A stretch of DNA of 64,000 bases from a virus. The position numbers and the translations under genes were made by a program. Positions 48,288 to 56,378 of the stretch are shown here, one piece after another. The first letter of the stretch is position 1. Each line of letters starts with the position of its first letter. The notes under the pieces were generated by a model. That model was not told the DNA's origin. It saw only the letters and a program-made list of their open reading frames with translations, and searched no databases. The stretch lies in IMG/VR virus record IMGVR_UViG_3300049595_004364, positions 3,322-67,321 of that record; one strand, written 5' to 3'.

Positions 48288-50084
48288 TTAAAAAACTACC
48301 CATCTGGTAGCACTTGCTATTAGCCCTACTGCCGAGTGTTGATATTGCAAGACAAGACTATTTTCATTATTTATAGTTTCAACTCCTGTCCCAACTATGT
48401 TTATTTGCCCTAGTCCTACATTTTGTATATGAAATATTTTTCCTGTATTTGCAACAATTGTAGGTAGGGTAAGAGTAATATTGTTTGTAGCAAATATAAA
48501 TTCGTCGGACAAAGTTAAGGTATCATTGGTAGACACATTTCTAGTAGCCCCGGATCCACCACCGCCACCACCTCCACTACCCGTAGGGCCTATTGGTCCT
48601 TGAATACCCTGTATTCCAGCACCCGTAGCACCTTGAATACCGTCAAAGCCTTGTATACCTTGAATACCCTGACTTCCAGCGCCCGTAGCGCCTTGAATAC
48701 CCGTTCCAGTAGCACCCTGTGAGCCAGTAATACCCTGTATACCCTGAGTTCCAGCTCCCGTAGCGCCTTGTATACCTTGAGCTCCTTGAGAGCCAGTAGA
48801 ATTAATTAATACTGCAAGGTGAACATTATTAGCAAATCCTGTTGTTCCAACTCCCCCAGAAGAAAGTAAAGTAACAGGATATATAATATATGCGTTGGAG
48901 GTGTTGGCATTTACAACAGTTGGGTTACCAGTAAGTTGCCAACTTTGAAAATCAGCACTTTCAGTTATAGACTGTATTCTAAATTGACTACCTGTAACTA
49001 GAGCAGCTAAAATAAATTCTATATCAACGTTATCATGGCTAATATGAAATAAATTAATTTCTGTTGCACTAGTTTGAGTTGCGTTATTCCATAATAGGTG
49101 ACCAGAAGCAGGTTGGCCACTAGTATCTGTGGCATTAGCTCTATAGGTAAAAACAGAGGTAGATCCTCCTAGTACACCTTGAATACCCTGTATGCCTTGA
49201 GTTCCGGCTCCAGTAGCTCCTTGAGTTCCAGCCCCAGTAGTACCTTGAATACCTTGAGTTCCTGTGCCAGTAATACCTTGTATACCCTGAGTTCCGGCAC
49301 CCGTAGCGCCTTGAATACCATTGAAACCTTGAATACCATCAAAGCCTTGAATACCTTGTATTCCAGCACCCGTAGCACCTTGAATACCATCAAAGCCTTG
49401 TATACCTTGAGCACCTTGAATACCATCAAAGCCTTGTATACCTTGAGCACCTTGAATACCATCAAAACCTTGAGTACCTTGGGTACCCTGAATACCTTGA
49501 GTTCCAGCACCGATAGCGCCTTGGGTACCTAAAGCACCTTGAGACCCTGTAATACCCTGTATGCCTTGAGTTCCGGCGCCAGTAGCACCTTGAGTACCTT
49601 GAGTTCCTGTACCAGTAATACCTTGAGTACCTTGAGTCCCAACGCCAGTAGCGCCCTGAGCACCTAAAATACCTTGAGTACCTAAAGTACCTTGAGAACC
49701 AGTAATACCCTGTATACCCTGAGTACCTAAAGTACCTTGAGAACCAGTAATACCCTGCGTGCCTTGAGAACCAGTAATACCCTGTGTGCCTTGTGAGCCA
49801 GTGATACCCTGTGTGCCTTGTGAGCCAGTGATACCCTGTGTGCCTTGTGAGCCAGTGATACCCTGTGTGCCTTGTGGACCAATAATACCTTGAGCTCCGA
49901 CACTACCTTGAGTACCTAAAGCACCTTGGGACCCTGTAATACCTTGAGAGCCCATAGTACCCTGAGTACCTTGAGGCCCTGTAATACCCTGCGGGCCCGC
50001 TGGCCCGATAGGACCAGCTGCACCCGGTAATGTAAGCTCTAGCGTTACCGGAGGAGTTACATAAACTTGGACTACATCACCCAT
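48288..50084 (-). CDS. Collagen-like fibre protein (GTQ/GIQ/GSQ triplets)
   Basis: Two Gly-X-Y blocks; C-terminal 'ITLTLPT...GKIFHI.N...ETIN' fibre domain. Confidence 0.9.
   Translation of the reverse strand: MGDVVQVYVTPPVTLELTLPGAAGPIGPAGPQGITGPQGTQGTMGSQGITGSQGALGTQGSVGAQGIIGPQGTQGITGSQGTQGITGSQGTQGITGSQGTQGITGSQGTQGITGSQGTLGTQGIQGITGSQGTLGTQGILGAQGATGVGTQGTQGITGTGTQGTQGATGAGTQGIQGITGSQGALGTQGAIGAGTQGIQGTQGTQGFDGIQGAQGIQGFDGIQGAQGIQGFDGIQGATGAGIQGIQGFDGIQGFNGIQGATGAGTQGIQGITGTGTQGIQGTTGAGTQGATGAGTQGIQGIQGVLGGSTSVFTYRANATDTSGQPASGHLLWNNATQTSATEINLFHISHDNVDIEFILAALVTGSQFRIQSITESADFQSWQLTGNPTVVNANTSNAYIIYPVTLLSSGGVGTTGFANNVHLAVLINSTGSQGAQGIQGATGAGTQGIQGITGSQGATGTGIQGATGAGSQGIQGIQGFDGIQGATGAGIQGIQGPIGPTGSGGGGGGGSGATRNVSTNDTLTLSDEFIFATNNITLTLPTIVANTGKIFHIQNVGLGQINIVGTGVETINNENSLVLQYQHSAVGLIASATRWVVF
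49735..49875 (-). repeat. 27-bp tandem repeat encoding GSQGTQGIT
   Basis: ccctgtgtgccttgtgagccagtgata repeated exactly three times, plus degenerate copies. Confidence 0.9.
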
Positions 50085-50436
50085 GAGTTACCCTTGGTGT
50101 AAGAGAAATTCTTCCCTCCATAGCTCTTGTTATATCTCCCCCAACTTTAGTGACTAAAATATCAAAAAAATATGTTGTGGGCTCAATTGCTATTGTATCT
50201 GCTGGTAGTAAAGTAAAGCCAAAAATCCAAGTATCTTGTTCTAAAAAAGCTTTACCATTAGCTAACGTACAATCTATAGCGGGTACAGTTTCTTCAAATT
50301 GTTTACGTAACTGGGCTCGAATAGTGGCTCCAGAAAGGTTTATAGGATTATTACTACTGTCTAGATAACGCATCTTAATAGGATACGTTACGCCTTGAGG
50401 TATGATAAAATCCCTTTTAACTGGTTCGGCAATCAT
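50077..50436 (-). CDS. BppU-like fibre attachment/adaptor protein
   Basis: 'I.QG.T...D...PINLSG...AQLR...Y.FDI...TR..EG...TP.VT' pattern. Confidence 0.7.
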   Translation of the reverse strand: MIAEPVKRDFIIPQGVTYPIKMRYLDSSNNPINLSGATIRAQLRKQFEETVPAIDCTLANGKAFLEQDTWIFGFTLLPADTIAIEPTTYFFDILVTKVGGDITRAMEGRISLTPRVTHG

Positions 50437-50469
50437 GTTATCTCCAACGACGTATCTTAATACGCAATT

Positions 50470-50498
50470 AAGGCTGAAAGCTACCGCTTTCAGCCTTT
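50470..50498 (-). terminator. Strong hairpin downstream of the tRNA pair
   Basis: AAGGCTGAAAGC-tacc-GCTTTCAGCCTT, 12-bp stem. Confidence 0.6.
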
Positions 50499-50507
50499 TA
50501 AAAAATG

Positions 50508-50601
50508 TGGTGCCCCCGATAGGATTCGAACCTATGACGCTCTCTAATCTGGAGACGATGCTGGATATAAGCCAGGTGTTTTACCTCTAAACTACAGGGG
50601 C
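50508..50601 (-). tRNA. tRNA with anticodon UAU (nominally Ile) and an atypical long variable region
   Basis: GCCCCTG/CGGGGGC acceptor stem, D-arm GTTT/AAAC, CTGG-CTTATAT-CCAG, ATAGG-TTCGAAT-CCTAT, encoded CCA; 94 nt. Confidence 0.85.
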
Positions 50602-50602
50602 T

Positions 50603-50690
50603 TGGCGGTAGAGGTAGGATTCGAACCCACGGTACCGTTAGGTACATCTGTTTTCAAGACAGGAGCCTTAAACCACTCGGCCACTCTACC
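50603..50690 (-). tRNA. tRNA-Ser(UGA)
   Basis: GGTAGAG/CTCTACC acceptor stem, CTGT-CTTGAAA-ACAG, long V-arm, G73, CCA. Confidence 0.95.
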
Positions 50691-50820
50691 CTTTTTTCTT
50701 TTCCCATATAGAATAGCATATAGCTACTGCCTGGTCTTTTGGTTTACCTTCTTCAATAATGACAGGTATACAGCGAGCTACAAACTCTTCCTTAGTTTCC
50801 TTTTTTCTAGGTTTAGGCAT
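50686..50820 (-). CDS. Small conserved phage protein (44 aa)
   Basis: MPKPRKKETKEEFVARCIPVIIEEGKPKDQAVAICYSIWEKKKG; its stop lies inside the tRNA-Ser 5' end. Confidence 0.65.
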   Translation of the reverse strand: MPKPRKKETKEEFVARCIPVIIEEGKPKDQAVAICYSIWEKKKG

Positions 50821-51202
50821 AAAATATATGGTCCTTAATCTTTTTTACTTTTCGTTTTTTACTAGCCCATCCTGGGCTAACGTAGTCGGCGTGGAAGTGT
50901 GTTGCTGAAATTCTATCAGAACTCAGTAAGGAATGAAGCGCTACTTCTTTTGCGCGGCGCCATGCTTTTCCTTTTGGTTTTTCACTTACGTTTCCTACCC
51001 AACTAAATTGGTTTTTTTGCTCTACTACACCACAAATAGTATCGGGCCATCTAGGGTCTTCTACCCTATTAAGCGTAACATCAGCTACTGCTAGCTGTCC
51101 CTCGATGGGTTGGTTACGAGCCTCATAATACACATTTTGTGCGAGACAATTAAATTCTGTTGGTGCAAAGAGCATAACTAGGGACAAGATCATGTCCTTC
51201 AT
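50813..51202 (-). CDS. SleB/Hydrolase_2 cell wall hydrolase
   Basis: 'CLAQNVYYEARNQ...AVA.V.LNRV....WPDTICGVV.Q..QFSW...THFHA...P.W...HIFY'. Confidence 0.93.
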   Translation of the reverse strand: MKDMILSLVMLFAPTEFNCLAQNVYYEARNQPIEGQLAVADVTLNRVEDPRWPDTICGVVEQKNQFSWVGNVSEKPKGKAWRRAKEVALHSLLSSDRISATHFHADYVSPGWASKKRKVKKIKDHIFYA

Positions 51203-51291
51203 GTTACCTCCTTATAAGGGGCGAGGGTTTCCCCTCGCCAAATAGTAACCCCCCGGTATTGCGCTATAAGGAAGCGTGGGGGGTGTTGTTA
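51203..51291 (-). promoter_or_regulatory. Structured leader of the hydrolase gene containing an anti-SD element
   Basis: Two GC-rich hairpins; CUUCCUUAUA is complementary to the RBS UAUAAGGAGG. Confidence 0.6.
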
Positions 51292-51633
51292 TTAAAATAG
51301 TGAAGCAAAATACTGTGCGGCTTTGCCCGTAAGCTTAGAAATAACTTCTTCGTTAACTTCTTTGCCCGCTGCTTCCAGCTTCTCAATAAGAGAGGCATGA
51401 GCAGCTTCTTTGCTAACGCGAGTACCGCTAGCTGCTTTTTTCTCTTTACCAGGGCCAGCTGACTTGGTGATATATACCCCAGCTTTGCTGAGAATCATAC
51501 GAACACTGTTTGGGGAAAAGCCTAGCTCTGCTCCTACATCCCCAACAATATCCATTGATGTTTCGGGTGTGGGCTTAGCTTTGAGATACATTGCTACAGC
51601 TTCTGCTTTTAGTTCATCGGTCCAAGTTGCCAT
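51292..51633 (-). CDS. T5 D3-like protein
   Basis: 'WTDE.K...PTPETSMDIV...SPN.VRMIL.KAGVY...KLTGKAA.YF'. Confidence 0.8.
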   Translation of the reverse strand: MATWTDELKAEAVAMYLKAKPTPETSMDIVGDVGAELGFSPNSVRMILSKAGVYITKSAGPGKEKKAASGTRVSKEAAHASLIEKLEAAGKEVNEEVISKLTGKAAQYFASLF

Positions 51634-51655
51634 TAATAGTCTCCTTTTATAGTGT

Positions 51656-51695
51656 ATAATATCATTAGGTGATCACAAAGTCAAGAACTTTTTTT
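51656..51695 (-). promoter_or_regulatory. Phage early promoter
   Basis: AAAAAAAGTTC-TTGACT-17-TATTAT. Confidence 0.75.
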
Positions 51696-52341
51696 AACTT
51701 GTGATCTGTTCGATTGTAATATATTTTTTGAGATGTTCTAAAGAGCCCAGCTCTTCTATTCGCTGATTTGCGTAGAAACCAGCTTTACGCCTTCCCTCAC
51801 TAGGTTGAAATACGTAAATTTGATATATAGGAGTCTTATCTCTAGACAATCCTACATATTTAATAACTTCTGCTGCTGCGTCATAAAACGCTGACCATAC
51901 AACATCTCCCGGTTTTACACTAGTTACTATACATTCTTCTGGTAGAAGACTTGGGGTATAGTTATCTTTGCCGCGGGGACGGCGAGGCACCCCAAGATTC
52001 TCTAGTATCTTATTGATAGCAGAGCTAGGGCGGAAAAGAAGGGCAGCAATCTCAGTTACCTCAGTACCCTGTAGATACCACTTGATAATGTTAGATACTT
52101 CTGCTGCTTCAAAAGCGGTGCCTTTTTTAGCTTCGTACAGCTTCTTACGACGCGCTACTTTTTCTTCATGCTCTACAATGATAGAGTTAAGTCGGGTAGT
52201 ATTATACGAAATATTTAGAATCTCGCACGCTTCTTTCTTAGTAATAGGCGGCGTAGATTTAAGTAAGGAAATAACTCGGGTAATAGAAGCTTCATCTAGC
52301 TTCTCGTGCTCTTTAGCTTTAACGCCCTTTTTCAAGTTCAA
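51694..52341 (-). CDS. T5 D2-like protein
   Basis: 'TKKEACEILNISYNTTRL', 'LGSLEHL'. Confidence 0.8.
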   Translation of the reverse strand: MNLKKGVKAKEHEKLDEASITRVISLLKSTPPITKKEACEILNISYNTTRLNSIIVEHEEKVARRKKLYEAKKGTAFEAAEVSNIIKWYLQGTEVTEIAALLFRPSSAINKILENLGVPRRPRGKDNYTPSLLPEECIVTSVKPGDVVWSAFYDAAAEVIKYVGLSRDKTPIYQIYVFQPSEGRRKAGFYANQRIEELGSLEHLKKYITIEQITS

Positions 52342-52606
52342 TCTCCAACAAAAACATTAGGCAGCAAATTGCATGTGCATAATGATGCATATCCGTTTCC
52401 GGGTCATGTGCCTCACCTAGTTGTACCATGTTGATGTGGCGTCTAGCAGCAGAAAGGTAGCGAGAAAACGGATCATTTACATATCTCCAATTATCAGGAG
52501 CATACTTTTCTGCCCCAAAGGTGAGTACTTTAGCAACTTCTAGTTCTGCTAGAGGTGGAATAAGTGCAAACATGGGCTTACCTTTATCGTACTTCTTACC
52601 CTCCAA
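52319..52606 (-). CDS. dATP/dGTP diphosphohydrolase (DUF5664-like)
   Basis: 'GKKYDKGKP...VLTFGAEKY..DNW...RH...D.ET..HH.AHA.CCL.FL'. Confidence 0.85.
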   Translation of the reverse strand: MEGKKYDKGKPMFALIPPLAELEVAKVLTFGAEKYAPDNWRYVNDPFSRYLSAARRHINMVQLGEAHDPETDMHHYAHAICCLMFLLEIELEKGR

Positions 52607-52826
52607 TACTAAACCCTCCCGACAGATTGATACTACGCCAATCTTGCTTGTCTAGGTCAAACACTGTAATGAGGTGTTCTGGGCCTGGAACAGACTTACC
52701 ATAAATGGAAGGAATTACACCCTCTTGAAGGGAGCACCGCATGATACGTTGGCTACCGTCTTTTTTGGTAAAGGTAACAAGAAGTTCTTTTTGCTTGAGC
52801 AGATCTTTTAGTTCTTCAACTGTCAT
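52596..52826 (-). CDS. SH3/Sm-like (WYL_2-type) protein
   Basis: 'VTFTKKDGSQRIMRC.L...VFDLDKQDWRS'. Confidence 0.8.
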   Translation of the reverse strand: MTVEELKDLLKQKELLVTFTKKDGSQRIMRCSLQEGVIPSIYGKSVPGPEHLITVFDLDKQDWRSINLSGGFSIGG

Positions 52827-52837
52827 TTTCTCTCCAG

Positions 52838-52975
52838 TTATGTTTTCAAACGATTACACTTAGAGCAAACATAAATACGTTGCACTCTGGTTCCAGCGAT
52901 AAAAAAGAAATTTGTTTTCCAACTATGGTCTTTCCATTGGCATTTGGGGCGCGTTTCGCCTTTCTTTGTCAACAT
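52838..52975 (-). CDS. Small putative zinc-binding protein (45 aa)
   Basis: MLTKKGETRPKCQWKDHSWK...YVCSKCNRLKT; GGAGG RBS after a promoter. Confidence 0.6.
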   Translation of the reverse strand: MLTKKGETRPKCQWKDHSWKTNFFFIAGTRVQRIYVCSKCNRLKT

Positions 52976-52995
52976 ATTTTATCCTCCATGTAGGT

Positions 52996-53035
52996 AATCT
53001 ACTACACAACTAGCGTGCGGTCAAGAGCTATTTTT
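52996..53035 (-). promoter_or_regulatory. Phage early promoter
   Basis: AAAAATAGCTC-TTGACC-17-TAGATT. Confidence 0.7.
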
Positions 53036-54234: not shown

Positions 54235-54525
54235 CTACTTCTCCGTTGCTGTGTCTTCAAGGTACTTCCAGCCTTCCTGCAAGAGTTTAATATAAGTGTC
54301 TAGTTCTTGCATATTTGACCTATACTTATCAAAGTTTTCGGCATCTAGTGCAAAGTACTCTTGCTCTGGTAAATATTGCCAGGTTAGTTCTTCTAGAGCT
54401 ACTTCTGGTCTTGTTGGCGCATCAACAACATATACGGGAACTTCCACATATTTAGTTGTTGTGCACGCCCCCAAAAATACTGGAAGAATTAGTGATGCTG
54501 GTAATAAATTCGTTTGTATCTTCAT
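54235..54525 (-). CDS. o-spanin (Rz1-like lipoprotein)
   Basis: Lipobox LGAC, proline-rich linker, overlaps the 3' end of the i-spanin gene. Confidence 0.75.
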   Translation of the reverse strand: MKIQTNLLPASLILPVFLGACTTTKYVEVPVYVVDAPTRPEVALEELTWQYLPEQEYFALDAENFDKYRSNMQELDTYIKLLQEGWKYLEDTATEK

Positions 54526-54832
54526 TTGCGGTCTCTACTATCACCTCTGCTGGCGCTGTCTTTACAATCTCTCTGTACCGTATAACAGGCTTTTCAACAA
54601 TTTTTATTTGTTCTACTCTACTATTATATTCTTCTAGCTTTTTAGCTTGATCGTCTATAATCTTTTTTTCAAACTTAATACGCGCTTGAAGCTCTTCTAT
54701 TGTATCAAGCTGCGTGTTTAATAAGGCTTTTTGTGTCGCTATTGTTTCACTAAAGCTATTGCTCTGAGCATAAAAGTAGTAACACGCTAGCGACAAAGCT
54801 GCAAAAGAGCCACTAATTATCCAAATTTTCAT
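54452..54832 (-). CDS. i-spanin (Rz-like)
   Basis: N-terminal TM followed by coiled coil. Confidence 0.75.
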   Translation of the reverse strand: MKIWIISGSFAALSLACYYFYAQSNSFSETIATQKALLNTQLDTIEELQARIKFEKKIIDDQAKKLEEYNSRVEQIKIVEKPVIRYREIVKTAPAEVIVETANEDTNEFITSITNSSSIFGGVHNN

Positions 54833-55070
54833 TTAACATTTCCTCTATCTTTTCGTGCACTTCTAGATTTCTGTCGTCAAGCAACAAAAATTCTTTTTCT
54901 CGCTCCTCTACTTCCTCTAGCACAGTCATATAGTACGCTGCACTATCGCGATATGCAAGAAAAATTATAGCGTATAATACTAATAAAACAAAAGAAAAAG
55001 TAAGCAATACTTCACGTATGCCTACTTTTCTTTTGTTAAATTCAGTTTCAATGTAAAACATTTGATCCAC
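54813..55070 (-). CDS. Single-TM membrane protein (possible holin/antiholin)
   Basis: One hydrophobic segment; directly upstream of the spanins. Confidence 0.45.
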   Translation of the reverse strand: MDQMFYIETEFNKRKVGIREVLLTFSFVLLVLYAIIFLAYRDSAAYYMTVLEEVEEREKEFLLLDDRNLEVHEKIEEMLNENLDN

Positions 55071-55757: not shown

Positions 55758-56080
55758 AGCGGGTCCGTTCTGTTGCTAGGTGGAACCCATACCCCCGAAA
55801 ATTAAGCGGCTAGCGCGTAATCCTCAACAATGCTGTTATCGTTTGCATTTATAACGTTTGATCTTTTAGGGAAATCACTCCCAGTTGTCCACTATCGTTG
55901 TTCGTCTGTCGAAACTATATCTGGCCCATCAAATATATACTACTGCGCTACATCCACATGCGCGTACTTATGACTCCATGCTTCCAACCACTCTGGAGTA
56001 CCCTTTGGGTAGGGTAGTATATATTTGGTGGACCAGCTGGGTACTGCCCCCAGGTCCAAATCGACTTATTGTCGCTTCAT
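55758..56080 (-). ncRNA. ssrA: Circularly permuted (two-piece) tmRNA
   Basis: Acceptor piece ends CTGGG-GGCAGTA-CCCAG-CTGGTCC-ACCA (CCA at 56028-56026); coding piece starts GGGCCAG at 55927, giving the G3:U70 pair; tag ANDNSIVEDYALAA* at 55846-55802; outer ends approximate. Confidence 0.95.
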
Positions 56081-56378
56081 ACAACTATATCTTCTCTAGG
56101 AACAATTCCAAGAGAGGATTGCTGGTTACTAATTACTACGTTCATAGCTATATCAGACGAATCTTCTACAGTACATAGAATTAGTGCAATACTATCTATT
56201 GCTTTAACTATATCTTCTTTATCTAGACCAAGTTTACTTTGGTGGATAAATAGTTTGTGAGAGAAGTTCGCGGCGTACTGAGCGTACACCGCGTTCATCA
56301 CATGCAGTTCCTGAGCTAGCTCATTCACTTCTGCCGGCCAAGCCGACGGATTACCTATAATTTCTTTTAGCATATTAC
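56077..56378 (-). CDS. Hypothetical protein
   Basis: Probable start MLKEII at a TAATG overlap with the upstream gene. Confidence 0.55.
56085..56112 (-). promoter_or_regulatory. Probable tmRNA promoter
   Basis: TTGGAA-16-TATAGT just upstream of the acceptor piece. Confidence 0.5.

Follow-up and report, generated by a model that had tools for sequence, protein, structure and literature searches.

McPheeters et al. reportedly described, in 1986, the silencing of gene e of phage T4 on early transcripts. In RNA phages and in polycistronic operons, translation of an upstream gene remodels the structure around a downstream RBS and, in the classical cases, opens it, and regulated starts usually combine a strong SD with an element that sequesters it. 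According to PMC3014915, T4 gene e (lysozyme), soc, 49 and I-TevI are silenced by RBS sequestration on long early read-through transcripts, the late transcripts of e start inside the 5' arm and are translated, and the T4 leaders are conserved among close relatives.

The 89-nt spacer that precedes a SleB-type cell-wall hydrolase gene in a freshwater T5-like phage resembles the leader of gene e in that a muralytic gene lies downstream of early genes, that a complement of the SD lies upstream of it, and that the control would act in cis and need no ligand. The likeness stops short of the architecture. The T4 element is a simple hairpin with a late promoter in its 5' arm, whereas no internal promoter was found here; 48 nt that include a stable hairpin separate the two arms of the present leader, and the anti-SD sits in another hairpin, so that a pseudoknot or a refolding is needed. 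Moreover, the T4 leaders are conserved (PMC3014915), and this one is not. We tentatively propose, with a probability of about 0.45, that the leader is a lineage-specific, ligand-independent, cis-acting translational attenuator that sequesters the SD. If the pairing works, a T5-like freshwater phage would have reached RNA-level control of a muralytic enzyme independently, a solution known from T4, and would have done so with a different layout, in which the anti-SD lies in a hairpin loop, a clamp hairpin separates the arms and an anti-sequestor stem stands next to the upstream stop. This is a prediction for a single genome, and its value lies in a compact and testable 89-nt element rather than in a new class of RNA.

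The D3-SleB transcription unit and its leader

The window, by which we mean the whole stretch of 64,000 nucleotides that was analysed, comes from an IMG/VR record of 67,321 bases that is rated 65% complete. The genes flanking the leader are T5-like, and on the minus strand they follow one another as a 215-aa protein (phrog_3611, and more weakly D5-like), the D3 homologue of 113 aa, the 89-nt spacer, SleB of 129 aa, tRNA-Ser, tRNA-Ile and the tail-fibre genes. The D3 homologue shares 42-44% identity with the D3 proteins of Demerecviridae phages of Aeromonas and Vibrio, and its UAA stop (51294-51292) is directly followed by a second in-frame UAA (51291-51289). A cell-wall hydrolase carried on the D3 transcript had been proposed from the letters alone, and the analysis supports this: the gene matches Hydrolase_2 as well as the endolysin family phrog_938 (E 5.7e-22), and it lies directly after the phrog_1725 gene, which has a strong sigma-70-like promoter. 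Its AUG (51202-51200) stands four bases past GGAGG. Searches of the 67-kb record for other endolysin families (Peptidase_M15_4, Phage_lysozyme, Amidase_2 and SLT) found none of the four, which makes SleB the sole muralytic enzyme recognised in the sequenced part of the genome. The features used below are as follows.

51656 to 51684, minus strand: sigma-70-like promoter before D3 (TTGACT, 17-nt spacer, TATTAT, with TG before the -10; 10/12 matches)
51292 to 51633, minus strand: gene of the D3-like DNA-binding protein, 113 aa (phrog_1725, E 6.4e-25)
51248 to 51284, minus strand: outer stem of hairpin HP1 in the MFE fold, A51284 and C6 (51283-51278) paired with G6 (51254-51249) and U51248
51262 to 51276, minus strand: inner hairpin of HP1 from the fold, CGCU (51276-51273) paired with AGCG (51265-51262) around the 7-nt loop UCCUUAU (51272-51266)
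51264 to 51275, minus strand: anti-SD GCUUCCUUAUAG, from the repeat search and duplex energy, with the 10-nt core CUUCCUUAUA at 51274-51265
51240 to 51247, minus strand: U-rich spacer UACUAUUU between HP1 and HP2, from the sequence
51220 to 51239, minus strand: hairpin HP2, GGCGAGGG-GAAA-CCCUCGCC, a perfect 8-bp G+C-rich stem of -17.9 kcal/mol
51206 to 51217, minus strand: SD region UUAUAAGGAGGU, with the core AAGGAGG at 51213-51207
50813 to 51202, minus strand: gene of the SleB-type cell-wall hydrolase, 129 aa (PF07486 Hydrolase_2, E 2.9e-25)

The elements named in the sequence-only reading are present base for base: the C6/G6 stem encloses the first 10-mer, and the GAAA-capped hairpin is followed by the RBS, UAUAAGGAGG, at 51216-51207, between HP2 and the AUG. 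The outer stem of HP1, S1, contributes -12.9 kcal/mol by itself and encloses a 23-nt interior that carries the inner hairpin. This CGCU/AGCG hairpin, the alternative seat suggested earlier for the anti-SD, is indeed found in the MFE fold; all seven bases of its loop are complementary to AUAAGGA of the SD region, and they are unpaired with P 0.99-1.0 in the fold ensemble. The two 10-mers, each of which occurs once in the window, form 10 bp including the single G-U pair that had been announced (U51273-G51208), and G-U pairs at both ends (G51275-U51206 and G51264-U51217) lengthen the helix to 12 bp. A repeat search returned a perfect 8-nt inverted repeat (51209-51216 / 51265-51272) in addition to the arms of HP2. 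Behind HP2 there is no U-tract but the tail CCUUAUAAGG (51219-51210), itself palindromic; in DNA letters this is CCTTATAAGG, a 10-nt palindrome that overlaps the SD. Since HP2 lacks a U-tract, unlike the canonical terminators of this phage, it is better read as a clamp that would shorten the distance from anti-SD to SD. Two further candidates were dropped, namely a 9-codon TTG ORF at 51242-51213, which has no SD, and a classic 1:2/2:3/3:4 attenuator, whose G-rich arms 2 and 3 cannot pair.

SleB is most simply taken to be co-transcribed with D3 because the spacer contains no promoter-like site, and the D3 promoter is the likely source of the leader-bearing transcript. The context of that promoter, AGTTCTTGAC(T/A)TT, about 17 nt and TAT(T/A)AT, is an early-promoter context seen on the minus strand at 51684-51656 (D3) and at two intergenic positions, ~39190 and ~61560.

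These observations bear on a temporal switch of the gene e type, in which transcripts from the D3 promoter would carry the anti-SD and stay silent, and a late promoter between the arms would yield a shorter, translated message. The Hydrolase_2 gene does lie directly downstream of D3 and its promoter, and T4 e (PMC3014915) offers a precedent. The SD also has its rare 10-12-bp complement, which lies outside the nested MFE and would form as a pseudoknot or after HP1 opens. In addition, when transcripts are modelled from a 5' end at 51262, 51248 or 51240, HP2 remains as their 5' hairpin, and the SD is unpaired with P = 0.26-0.38, as open as in the MFE. However, the analogy with T4 lysozyme drawn in the sequence-only reading requires a promoter between the arms, and a sigma-70 scan found none on the minus strand of 51203-51291 at a threshold of at least 9/12, bearing in mind that the late-promoter motif of the phage itself may differ. 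Inspection by eye turns up a weakly promoter-like pair, TTATAG (51269-51264) and TACTAT (51247-51242), 16 nt apart; this match of 7/12 is unconvincing because T5 early and late promoters are strong sigma-70 promoters according to PMC7472727. The phage's own promoter context, AGTTCTTGAC, is likewise absent from the leader. Altogether, we regard such a switch as decidedly unlikely.

Rarity of the complementarity and computed folds

The complementarity in the leader is statistically unusual, more so than expected by chance. When the 73-nt part upstream of the SD was shuffled 2000 times with its dinucleotides preserved, a 12-bp run was reached once, and the observed duplex energy of -14.6 was also reached once (shuffle mean -8.19, sd 1.57). 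As an internal control, 86 crude gene calls in the window were scored by the same run and duplex energy. The SleB leader has the longest anti-SD run of all (12, the next two genes having 10) and the lowest duplex energy (-14.1), which is almost equalled by the gene with start 55070 (-14.0) because a terminator hairpin sits there. By our own arithmetic, correction for about 86 leaders brings the chance to roughly 0.04. SleB also has the strongest SD of the 86 gene calls, -12.8 kcal/mol, followed by -10.8 and against a mean of -5.05. That the strongest SD and the anti-SD occur at the same gene counts in favor of an attenuator, since regulated starts are typically built in this way.

For the 111-nt leader, the computed fold has -38.6 kcal/mol (z = -3.81), a stability that none of 200 shuffles equalled. 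In the nested MFE, the anti-SD is held inside HP1 and the SD is weakly paired, so that covering of the SD depends on a pseudoknot or on the opening of HP1. The pseudoknot over the SD that had been suggested from the sequence thus stands as energetically feasible, and not as the state that the nested MFE displays. Corrected for accessibility, the interaction between the HP1 loop and the SD is worth -3.5 kcal/mol over 10 bp and -6.0 over 12 bp, and the seven loop bases by themselves give -3.1. A rough estimate for the complete pseudoknot, in which computed stacking energies are combined with generic pseudoknot penalties, places it anywhere between about 4 kcal/mol below the MFE and 2.6 above it, a range within model error. 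Forcing the 10 pairs into a nested, SD-sequestered fold gives -32.6 against -36.8 kcal/mol for the MFE.

The balance changes when HP1 is trimmed. With a 5' end at or below 51281, that is, with the three outermost pairs of HP1 lost, the MFE is the 12-bp helix around HP2. In this state the central anti-SD/SD pair reaches P = 0.93-1.00, and the SD remains unpaired with only P = 0.00-0.02, compared with P = 0.32-0.36 when HP1 is intact. Because its loss flips the computed fold to an SD-buried state, the outer stem of HP1 appears to act as an anti-sequestor, and the system lies near a tipping point. Based on these energies, occlusion of the SD by the upstream 10-mer is plausible.

Our working model for the attenuator is as follows. 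SleB, having no promoter of its own, would be transcribed from the strong D3 promoter. HP1 and HP2 would fold first, HP1 presenting, in a hairpin loop, a sequence that mimics the 16S anti-SD. The loop would then pair with the strong SD, or all 10-12 nt would do so after opening of the 4-bp inner stem, and access of the 30S subunit would be reduced. As long as the outer C6/G6 stem of HP1 is intact, it would serve as the anti-sequestor, and only the pseudoknot could cover the SD; upon loss of the three outermost pairs, the nested 12-bp helix around HP2 would become the best fold and bury the SD fully. The net effect would be a brake: SleB, the one muralytic enzyme that was recognised in the record, would be translated less from its early transcript. 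We infer that the pairing occurs in the cell, that it lowers SleB translation and that it is under selection. Among the observations that count against the attenuator are that the anti-SD is locked inside HP1 in the nested MFE and that the leader is not conserved, the SleB genes of the nearest relatives having no such brake (see below). Furthermore, early silencing would not be obligatory, since SleB, which on reading its sequence has no visible signal or transmembrane segment, would need a holin to reach the wall.

The position of the D3 stop adds a possible link to structure-mediated coupling. The stop codons (51294-51289) end 5 nt before A51284, the first stop lies 8 nt from C51283, and the C6 arm that follows is the one whose integrity sets the SD-open versus the SD-closed fold. 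In contrast to the classical cases, however, occlusion of the C6 arm is here computed to close the RBS, and the reach of the ribosome is uncertain; from footprint sizes that we assume, a ribosome terminating at the D3 stop would presumably touch no more than the first one or two pairs of HP1. In such an inverse coupling, ribosomes that end D3 at the double UAA, or that slide on, would unzip the first pairs of HP1 and thereby favor the SD-burying helix. The endolysin would accordingly stay silent during heavy translation of D3, and a fall in that translation would free it as HP1 forms again. We consider this model improbable; if it were true, a lysis enzyme would be timed by upstream ribosome traffic, with no dedicated late promoter.

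The leader in relatives and in sequence collections

Among 39 SleB loci from metagenomes, D3 lies upstream in only two, L030 and L031. As in the window, their order is a 213-aa gene, D3 and SleB, and their SleB and D3 are 57% and 52-55% identical to those of the window, respectively. In place of the spacer, both have an ORF of 120-145 aa, whose stop is abutted or overlapped by the SleB start. The SD of SleB is weak or absent (+0.2 and -4.0 kcal/mol), and the best anti-SD runs are 5 and 6. Neither of these nearest relatives sharing the D3-SleB order has the leader hairpins or the anti-SD, so the complementarity that was to be sought in the D3-SleB intergenic regions of relatives is not kept in them. 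Their coupled starts without an SD indicate that SleB is made there from the early operon by plain translational coupling, with no brake, and, if the pairing works, the three genomes would offer a natural comparison of two ways of dosing an endolysin from an early operon. A further contig, L029, encodes a SleB that is 91% identical, and it begins at residue 44, inside the gene.

The searches of IMG/VR gave a similar picture. None of nine D3 loci has a SleB homologue in the DNA examined, and none has the leader. The leader is also absent from 16/16 other viral SleB loci (35-44% identity), which have unrelated leaders with a best run of 9 (L024); seven near-identical loci among them (L012-14 and L016-19) reach a duplex energy of -13.0, with a run of 7 that is not centred on the SD and an uncertain assignment of the start codon. 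In an annotated Demerecviridae phage, the D3 region has no hydrolase adjoining D3, and when the DNA of 50400-52400 was compared with the phage collection, tRNA genes alone matched. The anti-SD and SD pair, searched as CTTCCTTATA-N35-60-TATAAGGAGG, occurs four times in IMG/VR, always in unrelated contexts, and the HP2 20-mer gave two matches there, both unrelated. The C6-antiSD-G6 pattern was found as one unrelated palindrome in IMG/VR and, in the genome collection, at one unrelated MAG locus in two copies. The palindromic element itself, GCCCCCCCTCCTTCCTTATAAGGAGGGGG, is located at 2134-2169 of the unrelated IMG/VR contig (L072) and at 193-228 and 734-771 of the MAG locus, which belongs to Geobacteraceae (L073).

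Of the runs X2-X24, the comparison used X2-X4 and X7. The DNA runs X2, X3 and X4 carry the leader, or as much of it as they cover, with 0 differences, and the leader is thus without variation there. The RNA-library run X7, whose library may contain DNA, yielded contigs of relatives that are 85-90% alike. One of them matches 51243-51291 (HP1) at 85% or more together with the SD and start region to 51212, and it skips 51213-51242 (HP2 and flank) as well as 51292-51459 (the adjacent 3' part of D3). The skipped stretch is flanked by TTACTA and TTATA. This contig gives a weak hint that HP1 is kept and that HP2 is dispensable or an indel.

The same region contains the 7-nt direct repeat CCTTATA (51271-51265 and 51219-51213), whose copies flank a block composed of G6, the spacer and HP2. 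Together with the CCTTATAAGG palindrome, the repeat makes the upstream copy automatically complementary to TATAAGG, and the arrangement could be the scar of a small rearrangement rather than a selected pairing. The block between the repeats looks prone to indels, given that the X7 contig skips 51213-51242. Such an origin keeps another explanation close behind the attenuator, namely transcript punctuation, which we consider quite possible although we favor it less. Here HP1 and its U-rich tail would be a leaky terminator or a 3'-end protector of the D3 message, HP2 would stabilise the SleB-tRNA message at its 5' edge or serve in its processing, and the match between anti-SD and SD would be incidental, a by-product of the repeat and the palindrome with no selected effect on SleB output.

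Comparison with the relatives lends weight to punctuation. A classical G+C hairpin with a T-run stands behind D3 in 6/9 of the IMG/VR loci (L003-L008, of which L003 and L004 are the same there), and L001 and L002, which are identical, have first a hairpin and next a tRNA behind D3; this genome position thus commonly carries a terminator. HP1 and HP2 share with these elements their place and their G+C richness. In HP1, moreover, UACUAUUU together with U51248 makes up the tail UUACUAUUU, which could be a weak terminator tail. The burial of the anti-SD within HP1 and the weak pairing of the SD in the nested MFE, the lack of need for a brake in L030 and L031, and the direct repeat, palindrome and X7 indel, which suit a rearrangement origin, are all compatible with this explanation. 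On the other hand, the terminator scan flagged neither hairpin, and neither fits the definition of an intrinsic terminator, because the interior of HP1 measures 23 nt and is followed by the tail UUACUAUUU and because HP2 has no T-run. The clear terminators of this phage have stems of 8-13 bp, loops of 4-5 nt and runs of at least 5 U; unlike these and the terminators behind D3 in related phages, HP1 has a branched interior and an interrupted U tail, and HP2 has no U tail. Finally, a complementarity that arises in 1/2000 shuffles and heads the list of 86 genes, and that falls on the gene with the strongest SD, would be a rare coincidence.

A sensor RNA, either a riboswitch opening the SD in response to a metabolite or a thermometer doing so in response to temperature, would share with the leader the pairing of anti-SD and SD as an output element. 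Two mutually exclusive folds, one with HP1 intact and one with the 12-bp anti-SD/SD helix, are computed to lie 4.2 kcal/mol apart and would provide the two near-isoenergetic states of such a device; nothing links them to a ligand. The SD pairing, which includes a G-U pair and has ends rich in A-U, may be likened to thermometer designs. The riboswitch-like character proposed at first nevertheless found no support in Rfam, where the leader matched no family. By E-value over 49500-53000, the sole overlap was Clostridiales-2, with 16.5 bits against a gathering cut-off of 58.6 and E 2.5; at the gathering cut-offs only tRNA and tmRNA models pass in the whole window, and no ROSE or fourU thermometer matched the leader region at E of 10 or less. 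A metabolite aptamer would be conserved across lineages, whereas the leader was found in 0/9 D3 loci, in 0/16 viral SleB loci and in neither L030 nor L031, the motif pair does not recur in relatives in IMG/VR or the genome collection, and an 89-nt element of two plain hairpins offers no conserved multi-helix pocket. In contrast to riboswitch expression platforms and to ROSE and fourU thermometers, the leader thus comes with no aptamer, no Rfam match and no conservation in any of the relatives examined. We conclude that a riboswitch is unlikely and that a sensor of any kind is very improbable; the suggestion of a possibly undescribed cis-regulatory RNA, taken as a class, likewise facing the lack of an Rfam match and the absence of the element from relatives, is not borne out. 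The lineage-specific attenuator remains our preferred reading.

Lysis genes and other neighbours

A lysis cassette that has no endolysin lies 3 kb upstream of SleB, at 54235-55070 of the window on the minus strand. Its products are a membrane protein of 85 aa, an Rz-like i-spanin of 126 aa (phrog_739, E 1e-3) and a lipoprotein of 96 aa that carries the lipobox LGAC (phrog_812, E 1.5e-7). In L030 (2489-3489) and L031 (2471-3468), SleB is overlapped by a gene for a 77-aa multi-pass membrane protein, and an ORF resembling peptide deformylase (141 aa, judged by eye) comes next. The 77-aa protein has no PHROG match and is a holin candidate; the window contains no homologue of it or of the deformylase-like ORF.

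The D3-SleB-tRNA transcription unit probably ends at a strong hairpin of -20.8 kcal/mol (window 50469-50504, minus strand), which stands directly 3' of tRNA-Ile and before the tail-fibre genes. Among the genes that follow, a 598-aa tail-fibre protein (window 48288-50084, minus strand) contains a long collagen-like G-x-x repeat (Pfam Collagen, E 1.2e-31), and the gene before it encodes a phrog_1084 protein, which in addition weakly matches families of tail-fibre assembly. At 55758-56142 of the window on the minus strand, we found a tmRNA gene of the permuted alphaproteobacterial type (RF01849, 108.8 bits; RF04321, 113.1 bits), for which ARAGORN gives the tag peptide ANDNSIVEDYALAA. The permuted type of this tmRNA points to an alphaproteobacterial host.
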